DNA from: a phage
Length of the DNA: 50,255 nt
Sequence record: PV636259.1
Reading direction: 5' to 3' (one strand)
Shown one piece after another: positions 4,457-41,321 of the stretch. The notes beneath the pieces were generated by a model. The model was not told where the DNA came from, made no database searches, and saw only the letters and a program-made list of their open reading frames with translations. The translations under genes were made by a program, and so were the position numbers. Position 1 is the stretch's first letter. Every line of letters begins with the position of its first letter.

Positions 4457-4498
4457 TCTCGTTTCGATGAGGTAATTATGCCAAATCGCACCGATCGA

Positions 4499-5490: not shown

Positions 5491-5893
5491 CGATTACACT
5501 TTAACTTGTCACGATTGTAATATTTGTCTAGAATCGCACTTGTGACAAAATTACGCACTGTGACGCCCCACAATAGACATATGGATATATGTATATATAT
5601 AATATATATAGTGTTTTTTTATTTATATATATAGATAATTATATTGTAATAGTTGTGTATAGCCGTCTTACATTGTCTAGCGTACTGTTGGCATATTTCT
5701 ATCTGCATGTTTATATATACAGTACTTTTTTGAGAGTCATATATTTCTATGTGTACTCTAGACAGCTAGACAAATGTTACACAGCTTAAAATTGGCTCGC
5801 AGGCATTGACGGCCCTGCATTGCGCTGTCACAATGGCAATTGTTGACATGTTATGACACCATTTACACATCAATAGACAAATGAGGATGGATT

Positions 5894-6409: not shown

Positions 6410-6415
6410 GGAGAG

Positions 6416-6682
6416 ATGAGTATGAGCAAGATTAAGCATGACGCCCTGAAAGGTATCTTGATGCGACTAAACCCAGGCGAAGCATTCCAGCTTAACCCCG
6501 AGACATTCGGGTTCGTCGGCTTCTATAGACTTGGCCTACAGATGAGTTCGCCAGCCGATGAGCTGGTCCGGTATGTGCGAAAGCAGTTCGGCGTCGAGAT
6601 GATTAGTCTCGGAAAGGTGCAAGGCATCCAGACATTCATCTTTAAGCCAAATGAGATTCGTTGCTTCACGCTGATGAAATAG
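6416..6682 (+). CDS. Hypothetical protein (88 aa)
   Basis: Track ORF; its stop TAG is the first three bases of a motif copy. Confidence 0.55.
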   Translation: MSMSKIKHDALKGILMRLNPGEAFQLNPETFGFVGFYRLGLQMSSPADELVRYVRKQFGVEMISLGKVQGIQTFIFKPNEIRCFTLMK

Positions 6683-6698
6683 CACTTTTTGTTAAAAC
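6680..6698 (+). promoter_or_regulatory. Operator/promoter motif copy (TAGCACTTTTTGTTAAAAC) + hairpin + TATTAT + CATCGACAC leader
   Basis: Read directly; the stop codon of 6416..6682 is embedded in the motif. Confidence 0.6.
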
Positions 6699-6754
6699 CC
6701 GACCGAGCGGATCGGGTATTATCTTCTCATCGACACGATACAGAGGAAGCGAAG

Positions 6755-6949
6755 ATGGAAACGCAAATTGACGTAGTGGTTGTTCAGCGCGACTCAACTC
6801 ATGAAAAGGGTCTGTTCAAGAAAGGAACCGAAATCACGATCGACCTTGAGGATATGGTTGCATATCACTCTGGCCTTACCTGGAACGTGGTGCGCGTAGG
6901 CAGCGACTACAAACTCAAAGGCTTTAACACTTACTTTGCGGAGGTTTAA
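6755..6949 (+). CDS. Hypothetical protein (64 aa)
   Basis: Track ORF 6689..6949 trimmed to the ATG preceded by GAGGAAG; the upstream part overlaps the regulatory cassette. Confidence 0.5.
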   Translation: METQIDVVVVQRDSTHEKGLFKKGTEITIDLEDMVAYHSGLTWNVVRVGSDYKLKGFNTYFAEV

Positions 6950-6951
6950 TC

Positions 6952-7419
6952 ATGGCGACAATTACCGTATTCCTGGCTAAAGATGAGATTGATGGCGAAA
7001 TGTCATTCTTCGCGTTTGAGCACAAAACCGGATCGCACTGGCACATGTACAGTCACTACACGGTTATTGATATCAACTCATACCGCGCAGGCTCACTTAC
7101 TGAAAAGCTGGGTTGCTTCATTGGAGCTATCAAGGCGAACAATGGCTGCGATTGTGAAGATGAGCAAGAGCGTCGCATGTGCGATATGATTAACCCGGTC
7201 TATCTTGAGTCTTTCGATCTTGATTCTGATGTGACCATTAAGGTGAGAAAGTCGGGTGAGTTGTTGCCAGGGATGCGTGTGCTGACTGGTTACTCGGGCC
7301 GTAAGGTGTGGCGCACTGTATCCAAGATTCGCCAGCGTTCGGCAACATGCTATAGCGTATTCTTTAATGATGGCTGGAATGAGGTTGCTGGCAGTAACGT
7401 GAAGTATCTTACCAAATAG
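6952..7419 (+). CDS. Hypothetical protein (155 aa)
   Basis: Track ORF; stop TAG embedded in the next motif. Confidence 0.55.
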   Translation: MATITVFLAKDEIDGEMSFFAFEHKTGSHWHMYSHYTVIDINSYRAGSLTEKLGCFIGAIKANNGCDCEDEQERRMCDMINPVYLESFDLDSDVTIKVRKSGELLPGMRVLTGYSGRKVWRTVSKIRQRSATCYSVFFNDGWNEVAGSNVKYLTK

Positions 7420-7435
7420 CACGAATTGTTAAAAC
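7417..7435 (+). promoter_or_regulatory. Operator/promoter motif copy (TAGCACGAATTGTTAAAAC) + TGCTATAGT extended -10 + CCATCGAAACG leader
   Basis: Read directly. Confidence 0.6.
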
Positions 7436-7493
7436 AGGATCGTGGTATCTTGCTATAGTTACCCCATCGAAACGCTTCTTGGCAAACCCAAAA

Positions 7494-7600
7494 GAAGGAA
7501 GCGGCAAACGTAGAACGGAGCCGCGAAAACCTCGAAGCAAAATTGACCTGGAAAAACCCATCAGGAAGGAAGCGGCAAACGTAGACCGGAGTCGCGAAAC
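7494..7600 (+). repeat. Two tandem copies of a ~36-bp element GAAGGAAGCGGCAAACGTAGA(A/C)CGGAG(C/T)CGCGAAAAC (7494..7530 and 7565..7600) in a 220-bp untranslated leader
   Basis: Read directly; each copy can fold GCGGC...GCCGC/GTCGC and carries an AGGAAG Shine-Dalgarno-like sequence with no ORF. Confidence 0.6.
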
Positions 7601-7638
7601 CCCAGGTTAAAAATTACACACCAATCAGAGGATTCACC

Positions 7639-9683: not shown

Positions 9684-9774
9684 TTCCGCAAGGCCATTTG
9701 TTATAGTGGCCTTATTGAAGCACGGCAACCAACCAATCAGGCTGAATGCAGGATAATTTAATGAGGTTTTATCT

Positions 9775-10008
9775 ATGATTATCGTCAACAAAGAAACTGG
9801 AGAGGTAATGGAGAATTGCATCATCATAGAAGAGTCGCCAAAGTCAAAGCACAAGCATGGTACTTACAGAAAGGTCACTTGCAAGGCTCCGGGGTGTGGT
9901 AATACATACGATGCAAAAGTGTCCGATCTGAATCGCGGATGGGGATTAACTTGCAGCAAGTCATGTGCCGCCGTCGTTCGTGAATTAAAGAAGAAAGGGA
10001 ATATATAA
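9775..10008 (+). CDS. Small Cys-rich (zinc-binding-like) protein (77 aa)
   Basis: Track ORF; CKAPGCGN...CSKSC spacing suggests a Zn ribbon. Confidence 0.5.
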   Translation: MIIVNKETGEVMENCIIIEESPKSKHKHGTYRKVTCKAPGCGNTYDAKVSDLNRGWGLTCSKSCAAVVRELKKKGNI

Positions 10009-10214
10009 TGGCTACACGACTCACTCAATGGCAGATTTACGACAAGGCCTCACGCCTTCGTGAATCACTTCGCGGACTGACGTCAAATGATCGCATGGAA
10101 ATCATCGGTCATGCATTGCACGAACTAACGCCGCATGACGTAACCTATCATTCTTGCGGCAATAAATTTTGGAACGTAACATTCGAGGTGAATGAAGATG
10201 AGCAAAACTCATAA
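10008..10214 (+). CDS. Hypothetical protein (68 aa)
   Basis: Track ORF; ATG overlaps the upstream stop (TAATG). Confidence 0.5.
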   Translation: MATRLTQWQIYDKASRLRESLRGLTSNDRMEIIGHALHELTPHDVTYHSCGNKFWNVTFEVNEDEQNS

Positions 10215-10485
10215 ATTAAAAATCGCCCCGGTACATTTCATTGGAGTAATGAACGGAACAAAAACGGCAGAGTTCCGCATCAATGACCGCAACTTCCAGC
10301 CTGGCGATATCCTGGAGCTATGCGAGTTCGATCGTGACGAGTTTACCGGGTGGGAAGTTCACGCCAGGGTGTCCGATGTTACAGACGTGACGCCATACAT
10401 CAATCGCGGGTATGACGATCAGGAATGCGACTTCACGCAATACGTGATGTTATCAATCAAACCTTACAGGAAGGTTAGACCATGA
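10198..10485 (+). CDS. ASCH/PUA-like small protein (DUF3850-like), 95 aa
   Basis: N-terminal KLKIAPVHFIGVMNGTKTAEFRINDRNFQPGDIL resembles ASCH-type PUA-fold domains as I recall them; start set to the ATG after GAGGTGAATGAAG. Similarity not verified by search. Confidence 0.45.
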   Translation: MSKTHKLKIAPVHFIGVMNGTKTAEFRINDRNFQPGDILELCEFDRDEFTGWEVHARVSDVTDVTPYINRGYDDQECDFTQYVMLSIKPYRKVRP

Positions 10486-11120
10486 AATTTGAATGCGTAT
10501 CAAGTGACGGAACGGGCTTTAAGTGGGGAAAAATCTACGAGGGCGTTCTCGTCAATGACGACAGCTTCGTTGTCGTGGATGAGCACGGTAGCAATGTGAA
10601 CATCATCCGTCGTCACGAATACCAAGAAATTTTCCTGCCGTATGGCGGTAGTTCAAAATATATCTTCCATCGAATCGTGGATGGTGTTAAATTTAACGAC
10701 GTAATCGAAGCAATCAACCAACTGCATAATAAAGAGGTAAAATTTATGAAATTTGAATGTATCAGTGATAACACCAAAAAATTTACTGTTGGCAAAATCT
10801 ACGACGTTCCTACTGAGCACGCAAAGCACACTGTAGCGCTTACTGACGACACGGGCCGTCACCGCATTGCTACCGTAACGCATAATGGCGAAGGTCTGCG
10901 ATGGAATAGCGGCGGCACTAAGTTTGCAACGTTCGGCAAGAAGCGTAAGCGCACTTTCTGCGTTAAAGGCAAGGTTGCAGCAAACAAGATCCACAACGTC
11001 AAGCCGTCGGAAGTTGACAGCAAGCCAGCGACGAAGTTTGAAGAGAAAGCAGATTTGTCTGGTCTGGCTATCGCTCTTGTTCTCCTGGTCGCTTCTATTT
11101 CGCTGATGTTCATCATGTAA
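10482..11120 (+). CDS. Membrane-anchored protein with two tandem paralogous domains (MKFEC(V/I)S...GKIY...) and a C-terminal transmembrane helix, 212 aa
   Basis: Internal duplication visible directly (residues 1-50 versus about 86-135); C-terminal LSGLAIALVLLVASISLMFIM hydrophobic segment. Confidence 0.55.
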   Translation: MKFECVSSDGTGFKWGKIYEGVLVNDDSFVVVDEHGSNVNIIRRHEYQEIFLPYGGSSKYIFHRIVDGVKFNDVIEAINQLHNKEVKFMKFECISDNTKKFTVGKIYDVPTEHAKHTVALTDDTGRHRIATVTHNGEGLRWNSGGTKFATFGKKRKRTFCVKGKVAANKIHNVKPSEVDSKPATKFEEKADLSGLAIALVLLVASISLMFIM

Positions 11121-26504: not shown

Positions 26505-29378
26505 ATGGTTGATAAGGTAGCAGGTCTGTCGCTTGACGTTGATGTGTCAACAGTGCAGCGCGCCGTCAAGTCACTGAAAGAGTTTTCAAAGGCCAACGAC
26601 CAGGCCGCTGATTCTATGGGTTCTTTAATCAATGAGTCAGAGGTTGCAAAACAGAAGGCCAAAGAACACGCTGAACAACTCAGGCGCCAGAGAAAAGAGT
26701 ATGAGGCCGTGGAGAAGGCAATCGATCCTACAGTATCAAAAATGGAAAGGTTGAAGATTGCATCTCAGCAGCTTGATAAACTCTGGCAGCAGGGAGTCGT
26801 TCCAGATGAGACGTTTTTCCGTTTGGGTGAAATGCTGGATCTGCAAAACGCAAAACTTGCTCGCAGCCGGGCTATGCTTACGGAAGAAGGTCAGGCGGCA
26901 TTGCAGGAAGCGAAAGCAAAAGAGCAGGCGGCAGCACGAAGCAAGGCGTTCATGGATGCCCTGAATGGTCAAGTTAACGCGATCGGCAAGACTCATGCTG
27001 AATTGATGGAACTGAAAGCGGCTGAGCTTGGTTTATCGAAAGAAGCAGCACCACTAATCGCAAAACTTAAAGATCAAGGCCGGGCTATGAATGCAGCAGG
27101 TATTAGCGCCGGGGAATACAGGCAAGCAATGCGAATGCTTCCTGCACAGATTACCGACGTCGTTACATCTCTTGCGTCCGGCATGCCAGTTTGGATGGTT
27201 GCCATCCAGCAAGGCGGTCAAATCAAGGACTCGTTCGGCGGGATTGGTAATACGTTTAAAGTGTTGCTGAGTTATATTAATCCAGTCACAGCAGGTATTG
27301 GCGTTCTTGTTGGTTCGTTAGGTCTTCTGGCGAAAGCTGGTTATGACTCTTACAAGTCAATAACTGATATTCAGAATGCGCTTATTGAGACTGGCGGTTA
27401 TGCAGGTGTTACGGCTGAAGATCTTGATTCAGTGTCTAAAAAGATCGCGCAGACAAGTAACTCAACCATTGGGAGTATTCGCGATATTGTAACGGAGTTG
27501 GCGAGTTCTGGTAAGTACACCCGCGAGCAGATCCAGAACATCACTAAGGCTACCGCAGAGTGGTCAGCGTCAACAGGAAAATCAGCAAGTCAAATTATTT
27601 CTGAGTTCGACAAAATCGCAAGCGATCCGGTAAAAGGCCTGAAGAAGTTAAACGAGCAATATAATTTCCTTGAAAAAGGGCAGCTTACCTATATCGATAC
27701 ATTAAGCCGGACGAAAGGAGAAACTGAGGCTGTATCAGAGGCTACCAAACTATTCGCAGACGTAATGGAAAAGCGAATGAAGTCGATCGCGGATAACGCT
27801 ACTCCTCTGGAAAAGATGTGGAGCGATATTAAACAATGGGCTTCGGACGCGTGGGGATGGGTGGGTGATCATACACTCGGGGCGCTAAACCTGATTATCG
27901 ACGTTGTTCAGGGTACAGTGATTCAGGTTAAAATGATTCTTGCTAAGGGTGATGAGTATATCTCAAACTTTATCGCCTCAGCCATAAAGGCAACTCAGTC
28001 ACTGCCTGGAATGAGTAATTTCGGCGCTGATGTACTGAAGGAGCAGGAGAATATTGTAAAAAGTTCTCGCGACAACTACGATCAGTTAGCTTCAGAGCTT
28101 GACGCTATTAACGCTCGTGTAGAAAAAGGAGAGATGGGATACATTGAAGCAATGAGGCAGCGTCGCACTCTTGAAAAGCAGTACAGCGAGGAAACTAAGG
28201 AGGCAATAAGGAAAGAAGCAGAAGAGATCGAGAAGCGAAACCGAGAACGAAATAAGCAGTCGAAAATTGTACGCTCACCGACAGAGCAATTCGACAAGGA
28301 GTTAATTTCACTCAAGGCTCAACTTAAGGTATTGCAGGAGCACAAGGAGATCGGGCAAAAACTTTCCGCACAGAGAAAGGCGTTGTTTACAACTGAGGCT
28401 ACGATCGCTGTTCTTCGCGAAGCCAGCTCTAAGCGTCAGTTGTCTGCGGAAGAAAAAGCGTTGCTGGCAAGTCAGGAGAGAGTTATTGAGCTTGCAAAAC
28501 AGAAGGCCGAGATTGGCGATCAGATTGTTAAGCAACAACAGTTGAATGATCTTACCGATAAATCTCTGAAGTTTGTCAATGAGATGACAGCGGCGACAGA
28601 ACAGCTTAACGCGTCACGCGGTCTTAGCACGCGCGAAATGGAACGACAAGCGGAACTGGCTAAAATAACCACTGATTACATCAACTCTGGAGGTAGTGAG
28701 GGAGACGAAAAACTACAGAACATGATCAAGGCACAAAATGATTACTATGCTGCGGAAGATGCCAAGCGCGCTGACTGGTTAGCTGGTGCTGAAAGCGCAT
28801 TTGCAGATTACGGCGATTCTGCAATGGATATGTACGGCAACGTGTATGATATCGCGTCAAGTTCACTTAACGGAATGAGTGATATGATGACCCAATTCCT
28901 TACTACAGGTAAGGCAAATTTTGAGGACTTTGCGAAAAATATCATTAGCATGATTATCAAGATGATTGCTCAGATGGTAATCTTCAATACGATCTCAGGC
29001 ATGACGGGAGGTAAGACATGGAGTTTTGCAAGTGGATTGACCTCTAGCGCTTCTGCGGCATCACAGGCAACTCCTACGCCTGCCGTCTCTGGTTTTAGGT
29101 CTTTATCTTCAGGCGTTGCCGTTACCTCGCTTGCTGCCGCTGCGGGTAGTGTTGCAACCTCTGGATTTAACGCATCTAAATCCGCACCGAAGGCAGCGAA
29201 CCAGTCAGCAGGCGGGACGGTCGTTGATGTTAGGGGTATGGAGGTTAAAGTTGACAACGGTTCAGATCCGAGAGGGATTTCTCAGGGCGTAGAAATGATG
29301 TTCAAAAAAATGATTCGAGAGTCTTGTTCGCAGGGCGGTGAGGTTTACAATTACATTCAGGAAAAAACAGGAGGCTAA
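26505..29378 (+). CDS. Tail tape measure protein (957 aa)
   Basis: Length, coiled-coil-rich composition, hydrophobic Gly/Ala/Ser-rich C-terminal third; start set to the ATG after AGGGGG. Confidence 0.85.
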
Positions 29379-29380
29379 TA

Positions 29381-29734
29381 ATGGCGGCACTTGATACTTT
29401 CAGTTGGTGTACGCAGGTTCAAGGGGGCGGCGGCTCCCTTACCACTACCAACAATGACAGATCCATACAGTTTGGTAACGGATACATGCAGCTTGCATCT
29501 TCTGGATTTAACACCACTCGGCGCGAGTATTCAGTTGTCTATGCTGGGGAAGATTTCATGGCTGTTTACGACTTCTGCGATTCTCACCGCATCAAGCCGT
29601 TCGCATGGACGCCTCCAGACGGGAAGGTCGGGATATGGGTAGTTAAGCCAAATAGTTTGGGAGCGAAACCAGTATCACGCGACGTGATGGAAATTAATGT
29701 AACGTTTATGGAGCAGTTTACATCTATGGAATAG
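29381..29734 (+). CDS. Minor tail protein (lambda M-like, 117 aa)
   Basis: Size and position immediately after tape measure. Confidence 0.6.
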   Translation: MAALDTFSWCTQVQGGGGSLTTTNNDRSIQFGNGYMQLASSGFNTTRREYSVVYAGEDFMAVYDFCDSHRIKPFAWTPPDGKVGIWVVKPNSLGAKPVSRDVMEINVTFMEQFTSME

Positions 29735-29747
29735 CACTTCATGACAA

Positions 29748-29772
29748 AAGCCCGCCTTGCGCGGGTTTTTTT
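29748..29772 (+). terminator. Rho-independent terminator (CCCGCCTTGCGCGGG + T7); stem identical to the one at 31928
   Basis: Read directly. Confidence 0.7.
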
Positions 29773-29813
29773 GTAGCTGTAGAATGGTTGCAACTAAACA
29801 AGAGGAAAAGACA

Positions 29814-30596
29814 ATGAGCGAAAACAAAAAACTTTATGATGAAGAAAGCGGGAAGAGCCTGTTTCACAACTGCCTTCAATCACTATACCCTGGAGAGATA
29901 ATCACCCTTATTGAAGTTGATGGTAGCAAGTTCGGCGCTCAGGTGTATCGATTCCACGGAGAGAACATCCAGTACACTCCAGAGGAAATCATGCAGGCCC
30001 AGCAAACTGGAACGCTGCCGCCGAAAGAAATTACATTCCGTGGGGAGCAATATGGAGCGCGCCCGTTCGGCATATCCGGGATCTCATTTGATAGTTCCGG
30101 AAAGGCAACAAAACCACAGTTGACGGTGGCGAACATTGATAGCAGAGTATCTGCAATGATTCGATCATATAACGGATTGATGCAAGCTAAGGTGACAATC
30201 TGGATCACTCAAAAGGACTTAATTCAACCTGACGGCTCAATAGCTGACGGAGCTTACCGCAAACTGGTATACTATATCGAACGCCCGAGCTATGTCGATA
30301 AGAGCGTCGCCCGATTCGATCTCACGTCGCCGTATGATATGGATGGCATCATGATCCCGTCTCGACTAACGCAAAGCGTTTGCTATTGGGCGCAGCGGGG
30401 ATGGTATAAAACCGGGAAAGGCTGCGGATACAACGGGCAAAACGGTTATTTTGACAAAGACAATAATCCGGTAGACGATCCTGCTTTGGATTTCTGCCCA
30501 GGTACGGTAACGGCCTGCCGCCTGCGATTCGGCGCAAACAATGAACTGGATTTTGGCGGCTGCGCGGTTGCTTCACTACAGAGGAAAAATCAATGA
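29814..30596 (+). CDS. Minor tail protein (lambda L-like, 260 aa)
   Basis: Track ORF trimmed to the ATG after AGAGGAAAAG; position in the M-L-K-I-J order. Confidence 0.6.
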   Translation: MSENKKLYDEESGKSLFHNCLQSLYPGEIITLIEVDGSKFGAQVYRFHGENIQYTPEEIMQAQQTGTLPPKEITFRGEQYGARPFGISGISFDSSGKATKPQLTVANIDSRVSAMIRSYNGLMQAKVTIWITQKDLIQPDGSIADGAYRKLVYYIERPSYVDKSVARFDLTSPYDMDGIMIPSRLTQSVCYWAQRGWYKTGKGCGYNGQNGYFDKDNNPVDDPALDFCPGTVTACRLRFGANNELDFGGCAVASLQRKNQ

Positions 30597-31327
30597 TTAA
30601 TGCAAAAATTAAACTTGAAATCATGACTCACGCTCAAGAAGAATACCCCCGCGAATGCTGCGGGGTAGTTACCCAAAAAGGACGCGTGCAAAAATACCAT
30701 CGCATTGATAACGTGCATCGCGATCCTGAGAATCATTTCATGATGGACGCAGTGCAATACGCATGTATTGAGGATGACGCAGACTCAACCACGATTGCGA
30801 TCGTTCACAGCCACACAGGGGACGGGGCTACAACTCTTCCCAGTGCGCACGATACATGCATGTGCAACGAGATGGAAGTTACATGGATTATTGTTAGCGT
30901 ACCGGAAGGAGATATGCGTTTTGTTAAGCCTGAGAAATTACCTCTGATTGGTCGACCGTGGTCTTTAGGCTCATTTGACTGTTACGGGCTAGTAATGGCG
31001 TGGCACAAAGAGCACGGCGTAGAGTTACGCGATCGCCGATTGAATTTTGAATGGTGGAAACCTGAGTACGGAATTAATCTCTATCAGGATTATTACAAGA
31101 AAGATGGATTCGTTGAGATTCCAGATCAGAATAACCCATCATTCGGGGATATGGTAATCATGCAGATAGGGCAAAATGTTCCGGTATGGAACCACGCAGG
31201 GATTTACCTTGGTGATAATCAGATCTTGCATCACGCCTTTGGCAAACTTTCGCGACGTGATATATATTCCGGCTGGTATCAGGATCATACTGTTTTAATT
31301 GTTCGCCATAAGGATCTTAAATTATGA
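30593..31327 (+). CDS. Tail assembly protein (lambda K-like; JAB/MPN + NlpC/P60-like), 244 aa
   Basis: HSHTGDGATTLPSAHD matches the JAB/MPN HxHx7Sx2D metal site; C-terminal Cys/His region; position. Confidence 0.7.
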   Translation: MINAKIKLEIMTHAQEEYPRECCGVVTQKGRVQKYHRIDNVHRDPENHFMMDAVQYACIEDDADSTTIAIVHSHTGDGATTLPSAHDTCMCNEMEVTWIIVSVPEGDMRFVKPEKLPLIGRPWSLGSFDCYGLVMAWHKEHGVELRDRRLNFEWWKPEYGINLYQDYYKKDGFVEIPDQNNPSFGDMVIMQIGQNVPVWNHAGIYLGDNQILHHAFGKLSRRDIYSGWYQDHTVLIVRHKDLKL

Positions 31328-31923
31328 ATGATGTAAAAGTAATCAAATTATCCGGTTCACTTGGAAGGCGCTTCGGCGTCTTTCACAGATTCGCCGTTGA
31401 CTCTTACCCGGAAGCTATCCGGGCGCTATCCAGTCAGGTGGATGGATTCAAAGAATATATGCAAAGTGAGGTCGGATCACGTAGCAAGTTTGCAATATTT
31501 GTGGATGGCGTTAACGTTGGACACCATGAAGAGGAAAAATTCAAGTGTGCCAAAGAGATAAGGATTGTCCCGATCCCGACTGGTTCTAAGTCAGGCGGTC
31601 TATTCCAGGTTGTATTGGGTGCGGCAATAATGGTTGCGGCGTTCTATACTGGCGGCGCATCTCTGGCGTTAATGGGAACAATGTCCTCGTCTCTGTTTAT
31701 GATGGGCGGCGCTATGGTGCTGGGCGGCGTGATGCAGATGATTTCACCGCAGCCGGGTGGCGCAAACTTTGAAGTTCAATCAAGCAAGAATAAACCTTCG
31801 TACGCGTTCGGCGGCGCTGTCAATACGACGGCGGCGGGATACCCTCTCCCGGTCCCGTATGGATATCGCGCCGGAGGTGGCGCAACTTTCTCAGCAGGTT
31901 CTTATGCCGAGGATATGAGTTAA
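31324..31923 (+). CDS. Tail assembly protein (lambda I-like, 199 aa)
   Basis: Position after K; Gly/Ala-rich hydrophobic C-terminal half. Confidence 0.6.
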   Translation: MNDVKVIKLSGSLGRRFGVFHRFAVDSYPEAIRALSSQVDGFKEYMQSEVGSRSKFAIFVDGVNVGHHEEEKFKCAKEIRIVPIPTGSKSGGLFQVVLGAAIMVAAFYTGGASLALMGTMSSSLFMMGGAMVLGGVMQMISPQPGGANFEVQSSKNKPSYAFGGAVNTTAAGYPLPVPYGYRAGGGATFSAGSYAEDMS

Positions 31924-31927
31924 AATT

Positions 31928-31952
31928 AACCCGCCTTGCGCGGGTTTTTTTT
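31928..31952 (+). terminator. Rho-independent terminator (CCCGCCTTGCGCGGG + T8), followed by TGTATAATG extended -10
   Basis: Read directly. Confidence 0.7.
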
Positions 31953-32000
31953 CGCCTGTATAATGAGTCCACCAATAAATAGCACAAAAAGGTAAACATC

Positions 32001-35000
32001 ATGATTCAAAAAGTGATAAGCGGATCTAAAGGTGGGTCACAGAAGCCTCATAATCCAGTTGAGATGGAGGACAATCTAATCTCAATCAACAAAATCAAGA
32101 TCCTGTTAGCTGTATCTGATGGTGAAATTGACGAAACATTCAGCCTAAAGCAGTTGATGTTTAACTCAGTCCCGGTGCAAAACGAGGATGGCTCATTTAA
32201 CTTCGAGGGAGTAAAGGCTGAGTTCAGGCCGGGAACTCAGACGCAGGAATACATCAAGGGCATGGAAGATAGTTCCAGTGAGGTAACTGTAAATCGTGAG
32301 GTTACTACCGATAACCCATACACGATCTCAGTGACCAATAAAACACTATCGGCAATACGCATAAAAATGTTTATGCCTCGCGGCGTACGAATTGAAAGTA
32401 ACGGTGACAAAAACGGCGTTCGCGTTGAGTACGAGGTGCAACAAGCTGTTGATGGTGGCTCGTTTGAGACGGTGCTCACCGATGTAATCGAAGGCAAAAC
32501 AATGTCAGGTTACGATCGAAGCCGTCGCGTAAACCTTCCGAACTTCAACAATCAGGTAATATTCAGAGTTGTTCGAAAGACTCCAGACTCTAACGACTCT
32601 AACGTTGTTGATGCGATCCAGGTAAAGAGCTATGCCGAGGTGATTGATGCCAAATTCCGTTACCCTCTGACAGGTCTTCTTTTCGTCGAGTTCGACTCGA
32701 AGATGTTCCCAAACCAGTTACCTACGATCTCAATTCGTAAGCGCTGGAAGATTGTAAACGTTCCATCAAACTACGATCCGGAATCACGAACCTACAACGG
32801 CAATTGGGATGGGACTTTCAAGAAGGCGTGGACTAACAACCCTGCATGGGTTCTATACGATCTGATGATTAATCAGCGCTACGGGCTGGATCAGAAGGAG
32901 CTTGGAATCTCCGTCGATAAATGGGCGCTCTACGAGGCCGCGCAATATTGCGATCAGATGGTTCCTGATGGGAAGGGCGGGACGGAGCCTCGATACCTTT
33001 GCGACGTGATAATTCAGTCACAGACTGATGCGTACAAGGTGATTCGAGATATTTGCTCAATATTCCGTGGTATGAGCTTCTGGAATGGTGAAAGCATCTC
33101 GGTAATCATCGACAGACCGCGTGAGCCTGCGTACATCTTCACTAACGACAACGTTGTTAATGGTGACTTCTCCTATACGTTCGCAAGCGAAAAGAGTATG
33201 TACACGACGTGTAACGTGATGTTTGACGACGAACAAAACATGTATCAACAGGACGTTGAGCCAGTATTCGATCGTGAGGCGACTCTGCGGTTCGGTAATA
33301 ACGTAACCAGCATTACAGCGATAGGTTGCACGCGTCGAAGCGAGGCTAACCGACGAGGGCGATGGATTCTGAAGACCAACCTTCGCAGCACTACGGTAAA
33401 CTTCGCGACCGGACTGGAAGGGATGATCCCGACGATCGGGGATGTTGTGGCAATAGCTGATAACTTCTGGTCAAGTAACTTGACGATGAACCTATCAGGG
33501 CGCTTGCTCGAAGTGTCTGGAAGCCAGATTTTCTTGCCGTTCCGAGTGGATGCGCGCGCAGGTGACTTTATTATCGTAAATAAGCCCGATGGCAAGCCCG
33601 TGAAGCGCACAATCTCAAGTGTTAGTGCGGATGGTAAGACTATAGAGATTAACATAGGCTTTGGCTTTCCTGTGAAGCCTAACACGGTATTCGCTATCGA
33701 CCGCACAGACATTGCGTTACAGCAGTACGTCGTGACAAAAATCGATAAGGGTGATGACGATGAGGAATTTACCTACAAGATTACTGCGGTTGAATACGAT
33801 CCTAACAAGTACGATGAGATTGATTACGGTGTAAACATCGACGACCGACCGACAAGTATCGTTGAACCAGACCAGATCCCTAGACCGGAAAACGTGCAAG
33901 TGTCATCTGAGTCACGAATCGTCCAGGGGATGAGCGTAGAAACTATGATTGTTAGCTGGGATAAAGTTCCGTACGCAGTTTTCTATGATGTGCAGTGGAG
34001 AAAGGATAATGGCAACTGGCAAAACGTTCCTCAGACGGCAAACAAAGAGGTTTACGTTGAGGGTATTTACGCTGGCAACTATCAGGTTCGCGTTCGCTCC
34101 GTCGCTGGTTCCGGTACGACTTCAGGATGGTCAAATATCGTAGCTGCTACGCTGACTGGTAAACAAGGTGAGCCTGGTCGACCGATTAACCTTACAGCTA
34201 CGGATGATGTTGTTTTTGGTATCCGTACAAAATGGGGGTTCTCTGATGGTTCTGGAGATACGGCATATACGGAGTTGCAACAGTCACCGGATGGAACAGT
34301 GGATAACGCAAGTTTGCTTTCTTTGATTCCGTACCCGCAGCATGAGTATTATCACTCACCGATGCCGGGTGGGAATATTGTGTGGTATCGGGTAAGGACG
34401 GTTGACAGGATCGGTAACGTTTCTCAGTGGACTGATTTCGTAAGGGGCATGGCATCGACCAACGTAGACGATATCATCGGAGAGATTTCTGTTGATATCG
34501 AAAACTCTCCGGGCTACGAGTGGCTTGTTGATAACGCAACCGACAACGCGGCGCAGAACGCAGCTAACGCAGAGGCAGCAATAGAAAACGCTCTCGCCAA
34601 TGACAAAGACGCGATCTACATGAAGAAGGAGAACGGAAAACGAAAAGCTGAGTACACGAAATCACTGAAACTTATTGCTGATGAGACGCAGGCACGAGTG
34701 ACGGCGATCGAGCAATTGAAGGCGAGTTTTGGCGATCAGATTAGCGCTAGCAACAGCGAATTGCGTGAAGTTATCGCAACTGAGACTGGAGCGCTATCGC
34801 GTGAAATTGACCAACTCAGGGCAGAGATTGGTGATGATATCCAGGCAAGTTTGACTGATATCAGAGAGGCTATAGCAAACGAGACTGAGGCTAGAACGCA
34901 AGCTGACTTGTCGTTAAGCGCGAGGCTTGGGAATAATGAGGCGGCACTTTCTCAAAAACTTGATTCGTGGAGCAATGCGGATTCGACTGGTGCAATGTAC

Positions 35001-35450
35001 GGAGTCAAGCTCGGTCTGAAGTATAACGGACAAGAATACAGTGCAGGCATGGCTATGTCTCTGATTGGTTCCGGAGCTGCGGTTAAGGCGCAGATTTTGT
35101 TTGAGGCATCACGATTTGCCATCATGACTGGAATGAATGGTCAGACTCAGTACCCATTCGTTGTTGAGAATGGCCAGGTCATTCTAAGTAGCGCGATCAT
35201 CAAGGATGGATTTATTACTAACGCCATGATTGGTAACGCGATTCAGTCTAACAATTGGGATGGAAATCAAGGGTGGCATATTAACAAGAATGGTGCAGCT
35301 TACTTCATGAACGCAACCGTAAGGGGTGCTTTGTATGCAAATAACGGATCGTTTGCATTCAACGGGACAAACAATACGGTTCAGATAAACAATAACGGGA
35401 TCACGGTTAACCTACCTAACGGGGGCCGAGTGGTTGTTGGTGTCTGGTAA
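32001..35450 (+). CDS. Central tail fiber / host specificity protein (lambda J-like, 1149 aa)
   Basis: Size and position after I; internal fibronectin-III-like segments; C-terminal coiled-coil and beta-rich tip. Confidence 0.8.
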   Translation: MIQKVISGSKGGSQKPHNPVEMEDNLISINKIKILLAVSDGEIDETFSLKQLMFNSVPVQNEDGSFNFEGVKAEFRPGTQTQEYIKGMEDSSSEVTVNREVTTDNPYTISVTNKTLSAIRIKMFMPRGVRIESNGDKNGVRVEYEVQQAVDGGSFETVLTDVIEGKTMSGYDRSRRVNLPNFNNQVIFRVVRKTPDSNDSNVVDAIQVKSYAEVIDAKFRYPLTGLLFVEFDSKMFPNQLPTISIRKRWKIVNVPSNYDPESRTYNGNWDGTFKKAWTNNPAWVLYDLMINQRYGLDQKELGISVDKWALYEAAQYCDQMVPDGKGGTEPRYLCDVIIQSQTDAYKVIRDICSIFRGMSFWNGESISVIIDRPREPAYIFTNDNVVNGDFSYTFASEKSMYTTCNVMFDDEQNMYQQDVEPVFDREATLRFGNNVTSITAIGCTRRSEANRRGRWILKTNLRSTTVNFATGLEGMIPTIGDVVAIADNFWSSNLTMNLSGRLLEVSGSQIFLPFRVDARAGDFIIVNKPDGKPVKRTISSVSADGKTIEINIGFGFPVKPNTVFAIDRTDIALQQYVVTKIDKGDDDEEFTYKITAVEYDPNKYDEIDYGVNIDDRPTSIVEPDQIPRPENVQVSSESRIVQGMSVETMIVSWDKVPYAVFYDVQWRKDNGNWQNVPQTANKEVYVEGIYAGNYQVRVRSVAGSGTTSGWSNIVAATLTGKQGEPGRPINLTATDDVVFGIRTKWGFSDGSGDTAYTELQQSPDGTVDNASLLSLIPYPQHEYYHSPMPGGNIVWYRVRTVDRIGNVSQWTDFVRGMASTNVDDIIGEISVDIENSPGYEWLVDNATDNAAQNAANAEAAIENALANDKDAIYMKKENGKRKAEYTKSLKLIADETQARVTAIEQLKASFGDQISASNSELREVIATETGALSREIDQLRAEIGDDIQASLTDIREAIANETEARTQADLSLSARLGNNEAALSQKLDSWSNADSTGAMYGVKLGLKYNGQEYSAGMAMSLIGSGAAVKAQILFEASRFAIMTGMNGQTQYPFVVENGQVILSSAIIKDGFITNAMIGNAIQSNNWDGNQGWHINKNGAAYFMNATVRGALYANNGSFAFNGTNNTVQINNNGITVNLPNGGRVVVGVW

Positions 35451-35453: not shown

Positions 35454-35482
35454 AAAGGGGCCGATTGGCCCCTTTTTTTAAT
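35454..35482. terminator. Bidirectional rho-independent terminator (GGGGCCGATTGGCCCC flanked by A- and T-runs)
   Basis: Sits between convergent J (plus) and receptor-binding (minus) genes. Confidence 0.7.
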
Positions 35483-36443
35483 ACATGTTTGGAGTGAAAG
35501 GAATTGGCATTGAAATGTTTATATTGAAGGGAAATTGAGCGCCGCTCTGAGTAGAATAGTTACCCACCCTTGTTCCGGGTGCGCTTCTCACGTTACCGCC
35601 GCTCATGCAAACTCCCTTGTATCGAATGTTATTATATCCACCCGTAACTCTGCATATCGTACCTGTTCTCAGTATTGGGAAAAATCCACCGCACCACTGC
35701 CAACCATCATTTATCGCCATAGTCCCGCCAAGAACGAATGGGCGTCTAACGCTTGAGAAAACGATCTGACCAGCAGGGTTACTCATAGTTATTCCTAGCC
35801 CAGGAGGTGGTGGAGTGTTATTAAATATTACGAGTTGCACGTATACGCTAGCGCCAACGTCATCAATCCCGTTATAGTTTGCATCCCTGCACCATATTGT
35901 ATTGCCGTCAGATTCAAGTGTTACGTTTGGATTATCCCACATACCGAAAGGAACGCCCTGTACTGGCAACTGAGCCTGACCGTTAACCTGAATCCCCCCA
36001 ACAAATGCAGCGCTCATCAATCTGGCGTTATTCGGTATAGCTGCGAAGTTCGTTGAATCGTTAACAAGTATCCCCTGATTTCCAGCTTGAGCGGGGAGGA
36101 TTTCGTAGCAGTTTCCATAAAATCTCATCCTCCTTCCACCGTGCCCGTTAAAATTACCTACCGTTATTCGTCCGGTTGAATCATTTACCTTCTGAAAACT
36201 AGTCAAATAATACACCTCCGGGATGTAATCCATATCGTCTATGTAGATAGCCTGAGATGGAAGGCAAAAAGCAGTAGACCCTGGACTCATTTGCAAACCA
36301 AAATCAAACACCGATCCAGATGAATCAACCCCGTCAGCCTGTATGGGTCCGCACCATGACGGTGCGCGAAGACCCGAAGTTATCTCCATTGCCGGGCGAC
36401 CGTCGTTTAGGTTTATATATATTCCTTGTCCCATAATTACCAC
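35478..36443 (-). CDS. Putative receptor-binding protein (321 aa)
   Basis: Gly/Asn-rich beta-type composition; encoded with a Cor-like lipoprotein gene, opposite to the tail operon. Positional inference. Confidence 0.5.
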   Translation of the reverse strand: MVIMGQGIYINLNDGRPAMEITSGLRAPSWCGPIQADGVDSSGSVFDFGLQMSPGSTAFCLPSQAIYIDDMDYIPEVYYLTSFQKVNDSTGRITVGNFNGHGGRRMRFYGNCYEILPAQAGNQGILVNDSTNFAAIPNNARLMSAAFVGGIQVNGQAQLPVQGVPFGMWDNPNVTLESDGNTIWCRDANYNGIDDVGASVYVQLVIFNNTPPPPGLGITMSNPAGQIVFSSVRRPFVLGGTMAINDGWQWCGGFFPILRTGTICRVTGGYNNIRYKGVCMSGGNVRSAPGTRVGNYSTQSGAQFPFNINISMPIPFTPNMY

Positions 36444-36667
36444 TCTTTAGTTTTGATTGACACCTTGCCGCTAAAGTTGCCCTGATCGTCGTCGGATGAC
36501 AGACCCTTGAATCGCATATCGATTTCGCCAGCAGGCACTTTCTGACCGTCAACGAATCGCATCATGCAAGATCCGTAAGCGTAAGTAACACAGTCGCCAT
36601 TCTTAAGATTCTGAGCGCAACCAGTCAGGATGAACGCGGCGGCGATAATGGTGATTAACTTTTTCAT
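36437..36667 (-). CDS. cor: Cor-like superinfection-exclusion outer-membrane lipoprotein (76 aa)
   Basis: MKKLITIIAAAFILTGCAQN: signal peptide with LTGC lipobox; small size; location beside the receptor-binding gene. Confidence 0.6.
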   Translation of the reverse strand: MKKLITIIAAAFILTGCAQNLKNGDCVTYAYGSCMMRFVDGQKVPAGEIDMRFKGLSSDDDQGNFSGKVSIKTKEW

Positions 36668-37193
36668 TCGTGTGTCCTCGTCTTTAGTGTGATTGCATTG
36701 TATGTCGCATTTACTTTTATTGCAATAGTTCGATTACAATTTTTTCGTGTAACAGGTGTCTATTTTTGTAACCGGGAGGTGTGTTACAAAATCGACCTCA
36801 TTCGACCGCAGGGAGATATGATAAAAACTCTATATAATATATATAGATAGATAATATTTAATTTTAGCTTTATATATATAATTATTGTTGTGTAACAGTT
36901 GTATATCGTGTAACAGGTGATTTGATTGATTCGTCAAATTTCTATCATATTTGTTCAAAATATAATCAATCTTGATTCTATTCATGGATATCTGTGTATT
37001 TCTAAGAAAAAGCGGTTACAAGTATTACGAAATAGACACCACATAAAAACAGGATTAAGCCATTGATTCTGTTGATGCTGATTGTAACTTGAGCGATATA
37101 GACACGCTATTACACACCAATTACATGTATCCGATTGACTAAACGCTGTTAATGGCTATAATGGATTCATCGTAAACGAAGGAGATAAGCGCA
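36668..37193. promoter_or_regulatory. Second AT-rich divergent control region (upstream of cor/receptor-binding genes leftward and the recombination operon rightward)
   Basis: No ORFs; GTGTAACAG repeats at 36746..36758, 36889..36898 and 36907..36919 plus inverted TGTTACAC at 36781..36788; 16-bp TATATAATATATATAG (36831..36846) identical to 5596..5611. Confidence 0.6.
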
Positions 37194-38258
37194 ATGTTCC
37201 AGGTATTCACATCAAGTCAGCTTTCTAATGACGAGTATCATAGCAACGAAGGTTGGGCGGCAGAGTATGTAAGCGGATCGAGCCTTGCAGAAATTTATCA
37301 AACTTGCCCGGCTAACTGGCGATTCAAGAAGAACGAGACTACTAAAGCGCTGGAGTTCGGTACTCAGTCGCACACTAACTTTGAGAGTCGAGATCTGTTT
37401 ACTGCAACGTATGCGCGTTGTCCTGCTCCGTCAGAGTTTAAAGATCTTATTACTTCGCAAACGGCACTGGCAGCAAAATTAAAATCTTTTGGCCTGAAAG
37501 GTACATCCGGTAAGCAGTACCCTGACCTCATCAAAATGATGGTTGATTGCGGTGAAGATCTCAATGTTCAATATCTTATTGAACTGATTGCTGAAGCTGA
37601 GGCGCGCGCTGAAGGAAAGCAACTGGTTGACGCTGATAAATATGATGCCTGTATGAAGATGAGGGCCATTCTTGAGCAAAATCCCGATCATGAAGCGTGC
37701 ATCAATAGCGAAACTGCGCAGCGTGAGATCTCAATCTTCGGTGAGATATCCGGCGTAAAGGTTAAGGTTAGACTTGACCATCTGGACTACAAAGAGAATG
37801 TACCAGGTCGTGTGCTGACTGGTTATGATGAGAATGGAGATCCGGTATTCGAAGACGTTATTTTCCCGGAAGCACTGATTATCACCGACTTCAAAACAAC
37901 GATGAGCGCAAATCCGTTGGAGTTCCCGCGCCTTGCATATAATCACGGGTATTATCTGAAAATGGCCTTGCAGCATGATCTGCTACGACGCGCAATCCAG
38001 GCTGGCGCTTTTGAAGGCAACTTCCCTGAAGATATCCCGATCGTAGTTAGATTGCTTGCGCAGGAGAAAAAAGAGCCTTATATCGCACTGGCTTACCGTA
38101 TGACTATGGAGCAAATCAGGATCGGTCGTAACCAGTACATTAGCGTAGTCCACACTTACAAGGCTTGCTCTGAAATGGATATTTGGCCTGGGTACGCTGG
38201 CGACGCAAGCGAGATCGAACTTGAAACGCCATCATGGGTGCGTTACCAAAATAAGTAA
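37194..38258 (+). CDS. PD-(D/E)xK-type exonuclease (354 aa)
   Basis: IITDFKTT matches the D-x-K-T nuclease motif; followed by Erf and SSB. Confidence 0.6.
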   Translation: MFQVFTSSQLSNDEYHSNEGWAAEYVSGSSLAEIYQTCPANWRFKKNETTKALEFGTQSHTNFESRDLFTATYARCPAPSEFKDLITSQTALAAKLKSFGLKGTSGKQYPDLIKMMVDCGEDLNVQYLIELIAEAEARAEGKQLVDADKYDACMKMRAILEQNPDHEACINSETAQREISIFGEISGVKVKVRLDHLDYKENVPGRVLTGYDENGDPVFEDVIFPEALIITDFKTTMSANPLEFPRLAYNHGYYLKMALQHDLLRRAIQAGAFEGNFPEDIPIVVRLLAQEKKEPYIALAYRMTMEQIRIGRNQYISVVHTYKACSEMDIWPGYAGDASEIELETPSWVRYQNK

Positions 38259-38332
38259 ACGGCACAAATAGCTAAACAAATAATTAATGAGGTGTTATAA
38301 TGCACCTCATACACCAATCAGGAGAAGTTAAT

Positions 38333-38980
38333 ATGCAATTATCACCAGAAACAAACGAAATCCTTCCTGCACTGTTCAATGCTCGCAACAAATTCGCGAA
38401 AGCAAAGAAGGACGCTAAAAACAATCACCTGAAAAACTCATACGCAACTCTTGATGCAATGATGGCGGCAGTAAGCCCAGCACTAACCGATAACGATATT
38501 ATGATCCTGCAATCAATGCTGGATACCAGTACTGAAACAACTTTCCATCTTGAAACGATGCTTATTCACAAATCCGGGCAGTGGGCCAAATTCTTCATGA
38601 TGATGCCGATTGCAAAGCGCGATCCGCAAGGCGTAGGTTCCGCAATGACGTATGCTCGACGTTACTCATTAGCCGCAGCGCTGGGGATTAGCCAGAGTGA
38701 TGACGATGCTCAGCTTGCAGTAAAATCTGTCAAGGACTGGAAGAAAGAACTTGATGCGTGTGAAGATATCGAATCACTGAAAGAGGTATGGGCTAACGCT
38801 TACCGACAGACGGACACGGCAAGCAAGTCAATCATTCAGGATCACTACAACGCACTTAAGGCTAAGTTTGAGATCGGTAAAGCTCGCGGTATTCGCCCGG
38901 CACAACCGGAACAGAAAAAACAGGTTGAAGCAACGAGCGCGAAGCCTGTACAATCTCAATCAATCACCAACTTCGAATAA
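38333..38980 (+). CDS. erf: Erf-family single-strand annealing protein (215 aa)
   Basis: KNSYATLDAMM and AMTYARRYSLAAALG motifs; start trimmed to the ATG after ACCAATCAGGAG. Confidence 0.7.
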   Translation: MQLSPETNEILPALFNARNKFAKAKKDAKNNHLKNSYATLDAMMAAVSPALTDNDIMILQSMLDTSTETTFHLETMLIHKSGQWAKFFMMMPIAKRDPQGVGSAMTYARRYSLAAALGISQSDDDAQLAVKSVKDWKKELDACEDIESLKEVWANAYRQTDTASKSIIQDHYNALKAKFEIGKARGIRPAQPEQKKQVEATSAKPVQSQSITNFE

Positions 38981-39026
38981 TCATCAGGGCGGCTTCGGTC
39001 GCCCATAAATTTTAGGAGAGAAAAAC

Positions 39027-39443
39027 ATGCATATTATCACTGGCGAGATCCGCAAAGAACCTAAGATTATGGAGCGTAACGGCGGCAATACTTATATCAT
39101 CGAACTGGCAGAGAGCTATAAACCTCGTGATGGCGATCGAGAATACACCAACTACACATTCTTTTTTAGTGATGGTGGAAAGCCTGGCCTTGCTGACTGG
39201 TATCGTGAAGCGTTCCAGGTTGGTCGAGTTATATCTGTATCATGCGAAACGTTGAAGATCTCATCCCGTGAGCACAACGGAACGGTTTACAATTCATTGC
39301 AGGCCGCTGATTTTCCTAAGCTGGTATTCAGTCAACGAGGACAAAGCAATCAACAACAGCGATCGCCTCAGCAACAACAGCGAACTCAACAACAACCACA
39401 ACCGAACCCTCAGTCAACATTTGACGATGATATCCCATTCTGA
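39027..39443 (+). CDS. ssb: Single-stranded DNA-binding protein (138 aa)
   Basis: Gln/Pro-rich linker and acidic C-terminal tail ending DDDIPF. Confidence 0.75.
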   Translation: MHIITGEIRKEPKIMERNGGNTYIIELAESYKPRDGDREYTNYTFFFSDGGKPGLADWYREAFQVGRVISVSCETLKISSREHNGTVYNSLQAADFPKLVFSQRGQSNQQQRSPQQQQRTQQQPQPNPQSTFDDDIPF

Positions 39444-39447
39444 TAAG

Positions 39448-39475
39448 AAAGCCCCGCAATGCGGGGCTTTTCTTT
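39448..39475. terminator. Bidirectional rho-independent terminator (AAAGCCCCGCAATGCGGGGCTTTT)
   Basis: Between convergent ssb (plus) and tail fiber (minus). Confidence 0.7.
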
Positions 39476-41321
39476 ATGATTGTTTAAGTGATTTTATTTC
39501 TTCTTTTAGAGAAGATACTTGCTTTGAAAGCTCCTGTATCGAAGCTATAGCGTCAAGCAAAAGAACATTCTCATCCAGTGATAGCGTGTAATCTTCTCCA
39601 TTCATATTTCCGTACTTTCTAACGTACTGACTATCTATGCTCATAAGTTGTTGAGCTATGAACCCTCTCCTTACAGTTTTCTCCTTGTCATAATTGTATG
39701 TGAATGATCGGTATTTCATTTTCATCAAATTGTCAAGCGCCAATCTTGTTTCAATATCCTTTATGTCGCTTTTAAGTCTCTCATCTGACACTGGAGACTT
39801 GGAAAATATATAGTTGACAGTACCTGAGTTATTCCCAAACGTTATGTCGTAACTCTCAGCGTTGAACGATGTATTCCTTACAATGTCACCGTTTGGCTGA
39901 TTACCTGAAGCTATATCATAATCGTACACCTGAGATATTACCGCGTGAGGGTGAGAACCATCTGGAAAAATAAGCGAACCAAGAGAGATAAAATTCCTCC
40001 AACCGCCGTTGGATACACCAACGCCGCCACCAACTAGACCAATATAACCGCTGTACTGAGAACTCATCCATGTGTTAGCCAATGTCAAATAGGTATTACC
40101 TGGAGCATATCCAGTTCCATTTGGTACTAGACCCTTGTTAAAAATCAACTTTCCGTCCAGTTTGAAATCCCACGTTGCCGCGCCCTGCTTATATCTGTCA
40201 TTGATTGTTGTTATCCTTGTCCATATATCTATTTCATTACCTCCCTGCAATTCGAAAGAGGATCTGTACTTATCAACTTCACCAACCTTGAATTTTGAAT
40301 CAATCCTGCCGCCTGAAGAATCGGAACCTCTTGGCGGCTCAGAGTCTACATTTTTATAAATAGACCAGTCGTTTACTTTTAGGCCTTTCTCAACCCAACC
40401 CTTAGTAGTTGCGTCCATGTTGCCTTCAGGATCTTTAAGTAACTCTAATGGGGCGTCTGGCCTCAAGTTTTTCCATGATTCTAATTTATCCACAAGACCA
40501 GCTAGATTTCCATCCTTAGTTAAAAGGTTTTCAGCATTAACGCTATTTACTGCGTCTTTCGCTTCCTGAGCACTTACCGCCGCCGCATTTTTTGCGCTTA
40601 CCGCATTGTCACGCGCTACCTGAGCGTCATTTTTTGCAGAGGTCGCAGTTTGTGCTGCCGTTTGAGCGTCATTAACGTAACCAGATAAATCACCTTTCGC
40701 GTCATTAATGGCCTGAATCGCTGCCGCCTCTTCAGTGTCAATGTGAGTGATGACAGATGATTCCTTAGATCCTATATCAGTAATAGCCTGATCCTTTGCT
40801 GCATTAATACTACCTACAGCACCGTCAACAATTTGTTGAGTCTGGTTCTTGATTGAGTTAGTTTCATCTCGTGCAGCGTTGGCTGCGTCACGCGCTAATT
40901 CAGCCTGATTTTGCGCAGCTTGAGAATCAGATTTCGCCTGATTCACCTCAGCAACTATTTGCTCAAGTTTATCCATATCAAGCTGATTGATGATATCAAG
41001 AGCCGCAGCAATCTCAGTTTCTTTGCTCTGGTAGTATCGCAGCGTTTCAGCAACGTTTTGAGCTAAGCCATTTACAGTCAGTGAATCGTTAAGCAGGATC
41101 ACATACTTACCGTCAGCAGCAGTCTGACCATCCGTAGAGATAGCCTTTAACTCAGTGTCGCTCACGATATCGCTGATTACAGCCAGCTTAATTGGTTGCT
41201 CTAGGAATACGATAGTTGCACCTACTCGAATCAGAGCAAGCTGATCCTTCCATTTTGTATCGGTTCCGAGAACCGTTCCATCCGCATCCATTGATGCTGT
41301 ACCGCGTCTATATAAAGCCAT
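39474..41321 (-). CDS. Tail fiber protein with C-terminal intramolecular chaperone (peptidase S74-like) domain, 615 aa
   Basis: N-terminal virion-attachment-like region, long Ala/Gln-rich coiled coil, Gly-rich beta region, C-terminal SDERLKSDIKDIE...RRGFIAQQL... segment typical of autoproteolytic chaperone domains. Confidence 0.65.
   Translation of the reverse strand: MALYRRGTASMDADGTVLGTDTKWKDQLALIRVGATIVFLEQPIKLAVISDIVSDTELKAISTDGQTAADGKYVILLNDSLTVNGLAQNVAETLRYYQSKETEIAAALDIINQLDMDKLEQIVAEVNQAKSDSQAAQNQAELARDAANAARDETNSIKNQTQQIVDGAVGSINAAKDQAITDIGSKESSVITHIDTEEAAAIQAINDAKGDLSGYVNDAQTAAQTATSAKNDAQVARDNAVSAKNAAAVSAQEAKDAVNSVNAENLLTKDGNLAGLVDKLESWKNLRPDAPLELLKDPEGNMDATTKGWVEKGLKVNDWSIYKNVDSEPPRGSDSSGGRIDSKFKVGEVDKYRSSFELQGGNEIDIWTRITTINDRYKQGAATWDFKLDGKLIFNKGLVPNGTGYAPGNTYLTLANTWMSSQYSGYIGLVGGGVGVSNGGWRNFISLGSLIFPDGSHPHAVISQVYDYDIASGNQPNGDIVRNTSFNAESYDITFGNNSGTVNYIFSKSPVSDERLKSDIKDIETRLALDNLMKMKYRSFTYNYDKEKTVRRGFIAQQLMSIDSQYVRKYGNMNGEDYTLSLDENVLLLDAIASIQELSKQVSSLKEEIKSLKQS

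Follow-up and report, generated by a model that had tools for sequence, protein, structure and literature searches.

A predicted LptD-type host-recognition cassette in the genome of a T1-like Tunavirus phage

Which receptor does a T1-like phage use when the tip of its J protein and the genes that follow it are not those of T1? The question is raised by sequence record PV636259.1, a Tunavirus genome of 50,255 nt (this whole stretch is referred to here as the window) that is collinear with T1 in blastn comparisons, at ~85–94% identity across most of its length. Directly behind its J-like tail-tip gene lie two ORFs on the opposite strand, which an original prediction made from the DNA letters described as a Gly/Asn-rich receptor-binding protein (RBP) of 321 aa overlapping a "Cor-like" lipoprotein of 76 aa, a pairing of the T1/T5 type whose receptor was said not to be inferable from sequence. 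T1 and Bas13, both of which use FhuA, are the only Tunavirus phages whose receptor has been measured. The features of the locus, in window coordinates, are as follows.

32001..35450, plus strand: J-like tail-tip gene, 1149 aa
35255..35450, plus strand: J-like C-terminal tip, last ~65 codons, of the LptD-module type; presumed RBP docking site
35454..35477: terminator-like hairpin GGGGCC-AATC-GGCCCC flanked by an A-run and a T-run, between convergent stop codons
35478..36434, minus strand: predicted RBP, 318 aa, DUF6453 / Rtp44 / Oekolampad-RBP family
36437..36667, minus strand: predicted superinfection-exclusion lipoprotein, 76 aa, PF24052 / Rtp45 family
36440..36616, minus strand: mature part of the lipoprotein
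36617..36667, minus strand: lipoprotein signal peptide with lipobox
36697..36725, minus strand: sigma-70-like promoter candidate TTGCAA-17-TACAAT, upstream of the lipoprotein-RBP pair

Two minus-strand genes behind the J-like gene

Both ORFs are present directly after the J-like gene as first described, at 35478..36443(-) and 36437..36667(-), and the composition of the larger product (13.2% Gly, 8.8% Asn) bears out the description of it as Gly/Asn-rich. Its length needs correcting. The long form of 321 aa begins with a GTG, whereas an in-frame ATG at 36434 occupies the start position of all the homologues compared, whose N-termini align there (MGQGIY in the window, MGAGIL in 9RPT chain C, MPQGIL in OzMSK, MAQGIY in Rtp44), and this ATG is preceded, at a distance of 9 nt, by an AAGAG. 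A length of 318 aa rather than 321 is accordingly the most probable. Since this start sits 2 nt past the lipoprotein TAA (36439..36437), the two genes are probably adjacent and translationally coupled, not overlapping as had been proposed.

The RBP ORF lies 27 nt past the stop of the J-like gene, and with its 957 bp and a lipoprotein gene directly upstream it conforms to a published layout rule, in which gpJ is followed at once, on the other strand, by an ORF of 930–960 bp, itself preceded by a small lipoprotein gene. Among the loci compared, the layout J / RBP / lipoprotein is common to the window, Oekolampad, Rtp, OzMSK and JeanPiccard. A tblastn search with the RBP found homologues in 337 phage records and, together with the Pfam E-values given below, this shows that the two ORFs are real genes and not products of chance. 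Closer to home, a megablast search with the locus matched 67 phage records, all of them Escherichia or Shigella T1-like phages, and whole-locus DNA identity reaches 92–98% in Sfin-1, ISF002, DELF2, pSf-2, SH6 and others. The near-identical loci of Sfin-1, ISF002, DELF2, pSf-2, SH6 and Shfl1 differ from the window by few substitutions, and their records label the two genes "hypothetical", "membrane protein" or "lipoprotein".

The family of the 318-aa protein can be taken as settled by its full-length match to a solved structure (E 1e-66). It scores 418.7 bits against Pfam PF20051 (DUF6453; cut-off 25, E 1.6e-125, residues 4–295 of 318) and matches PDB chain 9rpt_C end to end, residues 1–318 on 1–321, with an E-value of 9.6e-67; chain C of 9RPW and of 9RQI is matched as well. 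Aligned over its full length, it shares 67.9% of residues with OzMSK_038, 43.3% with the Oekolampad RBP, 40.5% with Rtp44 and 38.5% with JeanPiccard Bas02_0024, and identity rises to 98.4% for the SH6 protein and 99.7% for those of Sfin-1, ISF002 and DELF2. A 2026 receptor-prediction preprint draws the boundary of a family at >30% identity with >99% coverage, values that the RBP exceeds with every member of the LptD family tested. Conversely, no similarity was found to the ST32 and ST31 proteins of the T1 FhuA module, to the YncD-cassette proteins of IsaakIselin / Bas10 or to T5 pb5, no pb5 chain appeared in the PDB search at E<=1, and an NCBIfam search returned no match.

The conserved N-terminus reads MxQGIxIxLNDGRPxMEIT..., and in the alignment with 9rpt_C, inspected by hand for this one contact residue, Gln299 of the Oekolampad RBP, a published LptDE contact, appears to face a Gln in the window protein. 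A single-sequence AlphaFold2 model had a mean pLDDT of 32.6, too low to use, and the predicted fold, a pair of lectin-like beta-sandwiches bearing distal loops, is drawn from full-length homology to 9RPT. The annotations that this family carries, "membrane protein" in RefSeq and "moron, auxiliary metabolic gene and host takeover" in PHROG 1265, look wrong because the protein is without a hydrophobic segment and is homologous to a soluble protein of the tail tip. The RefSeq label in particular was rejected on hydropathy, the highest Kyte-Doolittle mean being 0.99 over 19 aa.

The 76-aa product begins with a signal peptide and a lipobox (N-terminus MKKLITIIAAAFILTGC) in which L-T-G is followed by Cys17 and Ala18, so that residue +2 is Ala and not Asp. 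The +2 rule for sorting lipoproteins to the outer membrane is well established, and Ala is compatible with it. The protein scores 87 bits against Pfam PF24052 ("Phage lipoprotein family"; cut-off 27, E 8.6e-25), compared with 128 for Rtp45, 129.8 for OzMSK_039 and 76.3 for the Oekolampad protein, and it matches Rtp45 in the PDB (9rps_D) with an E-value of 1.1e-9. Over the mature part, identity is 72.9% to Oekolampad bas18_0026, 40.7% each to Rtp and JeanPiccard (Bas02) and 39.0% to OzMSK. Cys26 and Cys34 fall where Rtp45 has its disulfide Cys30-Cys38, and the motifs VPAGE(I/V)D(I/V/M)R(F/Y) and KEW occur in every one of the five lipoprotein sequences compared.

What, then, of the likeness to Cor, the lipoprotein by which T1, phi80, N15 and HK022 block FhuA? 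T1 Cor has exactly the same 17-aa signal peptide, and to this extent the earlier description stands, but the mature domain bears no relation to Cor (blastp E 2.3), its family being that of Rtp45 and the Oekolampad exclusion protein. Whole-protein blastp gives 45% identity to T1 Cor over 53 aa (E 3e-9), the SH6 paper quotes the same 45% for the SH6 lipoprotein, and PHROG 1119 (Cor) matches residues 1–33 only (E 5.5e-6); the shared signal peptide explains both the figure quoted for SH6 and the PHROG match. In an NCBIfam search the one match, below threshold, was likewise to the signal peptide. T1 Cor itself reaches 17.7 bits against PF24052, under the cut-off of 27, and no T5 Llp chain appeared in the PDB search at E<=1. 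The label "Cor-like" was thus discarded on the mature-domain comparison, the export signal being all that the protein has in common with Cor.

Boundaries of the cassette in the T1-like backbone

How this gene pair came to lie in a Tunavirus genome is suggested by where the likeness to T1 ends and resumes. Similarity of about 93% over 22 kb stops at window position 35254, within the last ~65 codons of the J-like gene, and resumes at 36617, inside the signal-peptide codons of the lipoprotein gene (blastn). From there, window 36617–39471 is 92% identical to T1 29800–32660, while T1 positions 28395–29800 have no counterpart in the window. At this position T1 carries two plus-strand genes, ST32 and ST31, followed by cor on the minus strand; homologues of ST32 and ST31 are absent from the window. 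The T1 arrangement that had been invoked for the pair thus fails to apply, T1 having two unrelated plus-strand genes before cor and the RBP being unlike either these or T5 pb5.

The J-like protein is itself divided along the same line. Its last ~45 aa (LYANNGSFAFNGTNNTVQINNNGITVNLPNGGRVVVGVW) are unlike T1 J, being 96–100% identical to the C-terminus of OzMSK J and about 90% identical to those of Rtp and JeanPiccard, whereas the remainder is 93–100% identical to T1 and about 60% identical to OzMSK, Rtp and JeanPiccard. Break-points in T1 homology that bracket the J tip, the RBP gene and the mature lipoprotein point to a cassette swap, in which the exchanged unit, as delimited by these comparisons, is the J tip, the terminator, the RBP gene and the mature lipoprotein, placed in the slot of T1's FhuA module. 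The inclusion of the J tip agrees with the idea, published in the 2026 preprint, that the tip must match the binding protein encoded at the locus; LptD-specific J tips are reported there. The recombination junction falls within the signal-peptide codons (36617–36667) and leaves a chimeric gene with the T1 upstream region and export signal and an Rtp45-like rest.

The nearest relatives also differ within the cassette, the RBP being OzMSK/Rogue1-like and the lipoprotein Oekolampad-like. In figures, RBP identity is 68% to OzMSK and 43% to Oekolampad, whereas for the mature lipoprotein it is 73% to Oekolampad and 39% to OzMSK, a crosswise pattern that suggests independent reassortment of the RBP and lipoprotein genes within LptD-type cassettes. 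One could go further and suppose that LptD-type lipoproteins protect against every LptD-type RBP and that the two genes can therefore reassort freely, the RBPs of Tunavirus and Shigella phages perhaps using another set of LptD loops, or another conformational state, than that of Oekolampad; we consider this extension unlikely.

The signals around the pair are less distinctive. The hairpin between the two convergent stop codons folds at -16.8 kcal/mol (z = -3.78, with 0/200 shuffles as stable) and could terminate transcription both ways. A consensus terminator scan did not flag it, probably because the A and T flanks pair and lengthen the stem. The promoter candidate at 36697..36725 scored 9/12 in a consensus scan, a score at which such sites are no commoner in the region than in shuffles, and it lies within sequence that is common to the region upstream of T1 cor. 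The stretch 36668–37193 is an AT-rich divergent intergenic region, at whose other side a second promoter-like site, TTGACT-16-TATAAT at 37135..37162 (+), scores 11/12 ahead of an exonuclease VIII-like gene starting at 37194.

Likeness to T1 is interrupted elsewhere in the genome as well. The lateral tail fibre gene (39474–41321, minus strand) encodes 615 aa, with a Peptidase_S74 chaperone domain at the C-terminus, and T1 similarity is missing over 39471–40493, where the distal ~340 aa form a second swapped host-range module. The early small-ORF region has no blastn match to T1 at 4008–5371, 5729–6236, 6414–7620 and 9733–10734. The T1 HNH homing-endonuclease genes ST8, ST63 and ST15 are without counterpart, leaving blastn gaps at window 1923/1928, 12763/12919 and 48398/48440, and the same absence has been reported for SH6 and pSf-2.

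LptD as the predicted receptor

For the family to which both proteins belong, the molecular basis of receptor recognition and blocking has been described. Dunbar et al. (PNAS 2025, PMC12685063) solved the Oekolampad RBP on Shigella flexneri LptDE (9RPT, 9RPW and 9RQI), with the RBP of 9RPT inserted in the extracellular face of the open translocon, and Rtp45 bound on the periplasmic side of LptD (9RPS), where it displaces extracellular loop 4 outward, by as much as 20 Å, such that the RBP is unable to engage. Of the lipoproteins of this family, Rtp45 is the one whose binding to LptD has been demonstrated by structure. Published AF3 models of both kinds of complex were inaccurate. In Oekolampad (Bas18), the corresponding genes bas18_0025 and bas18_0026 follow gpJ in the same order and orientation as in the window and belong to the same Pfam families; the differences are that Oekolampad is a Dhillonvirus and the window a Tunavirus, that the RBP loops differ and that the J tip is only about 60% alike. 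The locus type was first described as rtp44/rtp45 in Rtp, and the window lipoprotein keeps the lipobox, the Cys pair, VPAGE-D-R and the C-terminal KEW of Rtp45, but not its signal peptide, which in the window is of the T1-Cor type and unrelated.

The functional half of the original prediction, an RBP paired with a receptor-blocking lipoprotein, is thus supported by full-length homologues of solved complexes, while its assignment to the T1/T5 type gives way to the rtp44/rtp45 type. ST32/ST31 with Cor in T1 and pb5 with Llp in T5 follow the same logic, a tip protein plus a periplasm-facing lipoprotein that blocks the receptor, but their receptor is FhuA and they are without sequence similarity to the window RBP or the mature lipoprotein. 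T1 uses the same genomic slot as the window cassette, although its binding-protein candidates are on the plus strand. Llp is reported to act by long-range allostery and not by physical displacement of a loop, and pb5/Llp-type structures are reported as deposited under 8A8C and 8A60.

Several lines of published genetic work connect this kind of RBP to LptD. Spontaneous resistance to phages with a DUF6453-family RBP maps to lptD, and Oekolampad, AugustePiccard and JeanPiccard have been assigned to LptD through resistance mutations. A genetic screen of 255 phages in the 2026 preprint recognised four mutually unrelated families at this locus, specific to FhuA, BtuB, LptD and YncD. The view that the receptor is beyond inference from sequence is out of date now that the DUF6453 family has been tied specifically to LptD. 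Of the phages with an experimentally measured receptor, OzMSK has the closest RBP (67.9%); it failed to infect two lptD loop-deletion mutants (PMC13035648), it shares the layout of the locus, and the last ~45 aa of its J protein are nearly identical to those of the window, while its lipoprotein is of the Rtp45 subtype (39% mature identity to that of the window) and its backbone is Rtp-like, not T1-like. The same paper already names SH6 among the Tunavirinae phages expected to depend on LptD, and gives an AlphaFold2 model that matches (PMC13035648).

Taken together, the observed homology, gene order, cassette boundaries and conserved motifs lead us to infer, with a probability of roughly 0.85, that the window carries an LptD-type host-recognition cassette in a Tunavirus backbone, with an RBP that is predicted to be part of the virion and to act on LptDE and a lipoprotein, presumably transcribed with it, that would exclude superinfecting phages by blocking LptD.

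The most serious doubt concerns the receptor and not the module. The architecture could be the same and this divergent RBP clade could have shifted to another outer-membrane receptor or need a co-receptor, given that conservation within the family is lowest in the distal loops, for which three groupings have been proposed (PMC13035648), that dual-receptor relatives exist (Bas01, for example, uses LptD and NupG through a J domain), and that our literature search found no receptor experiment, plating on lptD mutants included, for Sfin-1, SH6, pSf-2 or any other Tunavirus with the cassette. In a published alignment of 16 such RBPs, the invariant residues are at the base and not in the LptD-contacting loops (PMC13035648), and since the window RBP is 43% identical to that of Oekolampad, its binding mode could differ. 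We nevertheless consider a changed receptor improbable, because RBPs of the DUF6453 family correlate with LptD in every tested case, because LptD is required by OzMSK, whose RBP (68% identity) is the closest among tested phages, and because the partner lipoprotein, which shares 73% of its residues with its counterpart in LptD-dependent Oekolampad, would be rendered useless by a switch of receptor.

Two further readings would place host recognition elsewhere. If the 318-aa protein were a non-structural membrane or moron protein, as the RefSeq and PHROG 1265 categories have it, host range would be set by J alone or by an O-antigen-binding lateral fibre; the homologue is not listed among the virion proteins identified by LC-MS/MS in SH6 (11 proteins) and Sfin-1 (22 proteins), and Sfin-1 adsorption, insensitive to proteinase K and sensitive to periodate, points to LPS and was read by its authors as indicating an O-antigen receptor. 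The two proteomes are of low coverage and an RBP is expected in very few copies per virion, such that its absence from them is a weak negative, and dependence on O-antigen fits the family model of initial, reversible binding by the lateral fibre. The protein also lacks the hydrophobic segment that a membrane location calls for, its homologue is soluble and binds the extracellular face of LptDE in vitro, resistance to phages with this RBP family maps to lptD, and the J tip co-varies with the RBP, all of which makes a membrane or moron role very improbable. A FhuA system of T1 type, with the lipoprotein acting as Cor on FhuA, would suit the Tunavirus backbone and the Cor matches in PHROG 1119 and blastp, with which the SH6 paper concurs. 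It is hardly credible in view of the restriction of that likeness to 17 identical signal-peptide residues, of the PF24052 scores that separate the window lipoprotein (87 bits) from T1 Cor, and of the missing ST32 and ST31, whose counterparts accompany cor in FhuA-dependent phages.

With LptD as the preferred receptor, a sequence of events may be envisioned in which the lateral fibre (39474..41321, minus strand) would begin adsorption by binding O-antigen reversibly, a step already proposed for phages of this family and in keeping with the periodate sensitivity of Sfin-1 adsorption. The RBP, whose conserved N-terminal base (the docking end proposed by Black et al.) would attach it to the cassette-specific tip at the C-terminus of J, would then insert its distal loops into the extracellular face of LptDE, making adsorption irreversible and triggering DNA ejection. 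In the infected cell, both genes appear to be read as one transcript that starts with the lipoprotein gene, from the same promoter region as cor in T1. After export and attachment of lipid at Cys17, the 76-aa lipoprotein would be directed to the outer membrane, on whose inner leaflet it may bind the periplasmic side of LptD and fix extracellular loop 4 in a conformation that the RBP cannot engage. Such a block of LptD would prevent superinfection and the loss of progeny on cell debris.

Implications for annotation and host range

It is important to stress that the type of locus, the mechanism and near-identical copies of the genes are already in the literature and databases, and that no new biological principle is claimed here. 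The practical gain lies in annotation, as genes now recorded as "membrane protein" and "lipoprotein/Cor" can be renamed as an LptD-type RBP and its exclusion factor, and a receptor becomes predictable for a group of Tunavirus phages of Shigella and E. coli. Overall, the cassette is the likely determinant of the terminal receptor and would thereby contribute to host range. The predicted receptor, LptD, is essential and conserved, and for this reason such phages are of interest for therapy and lyse laboratory strains that are resistant to T1 through fhuA.
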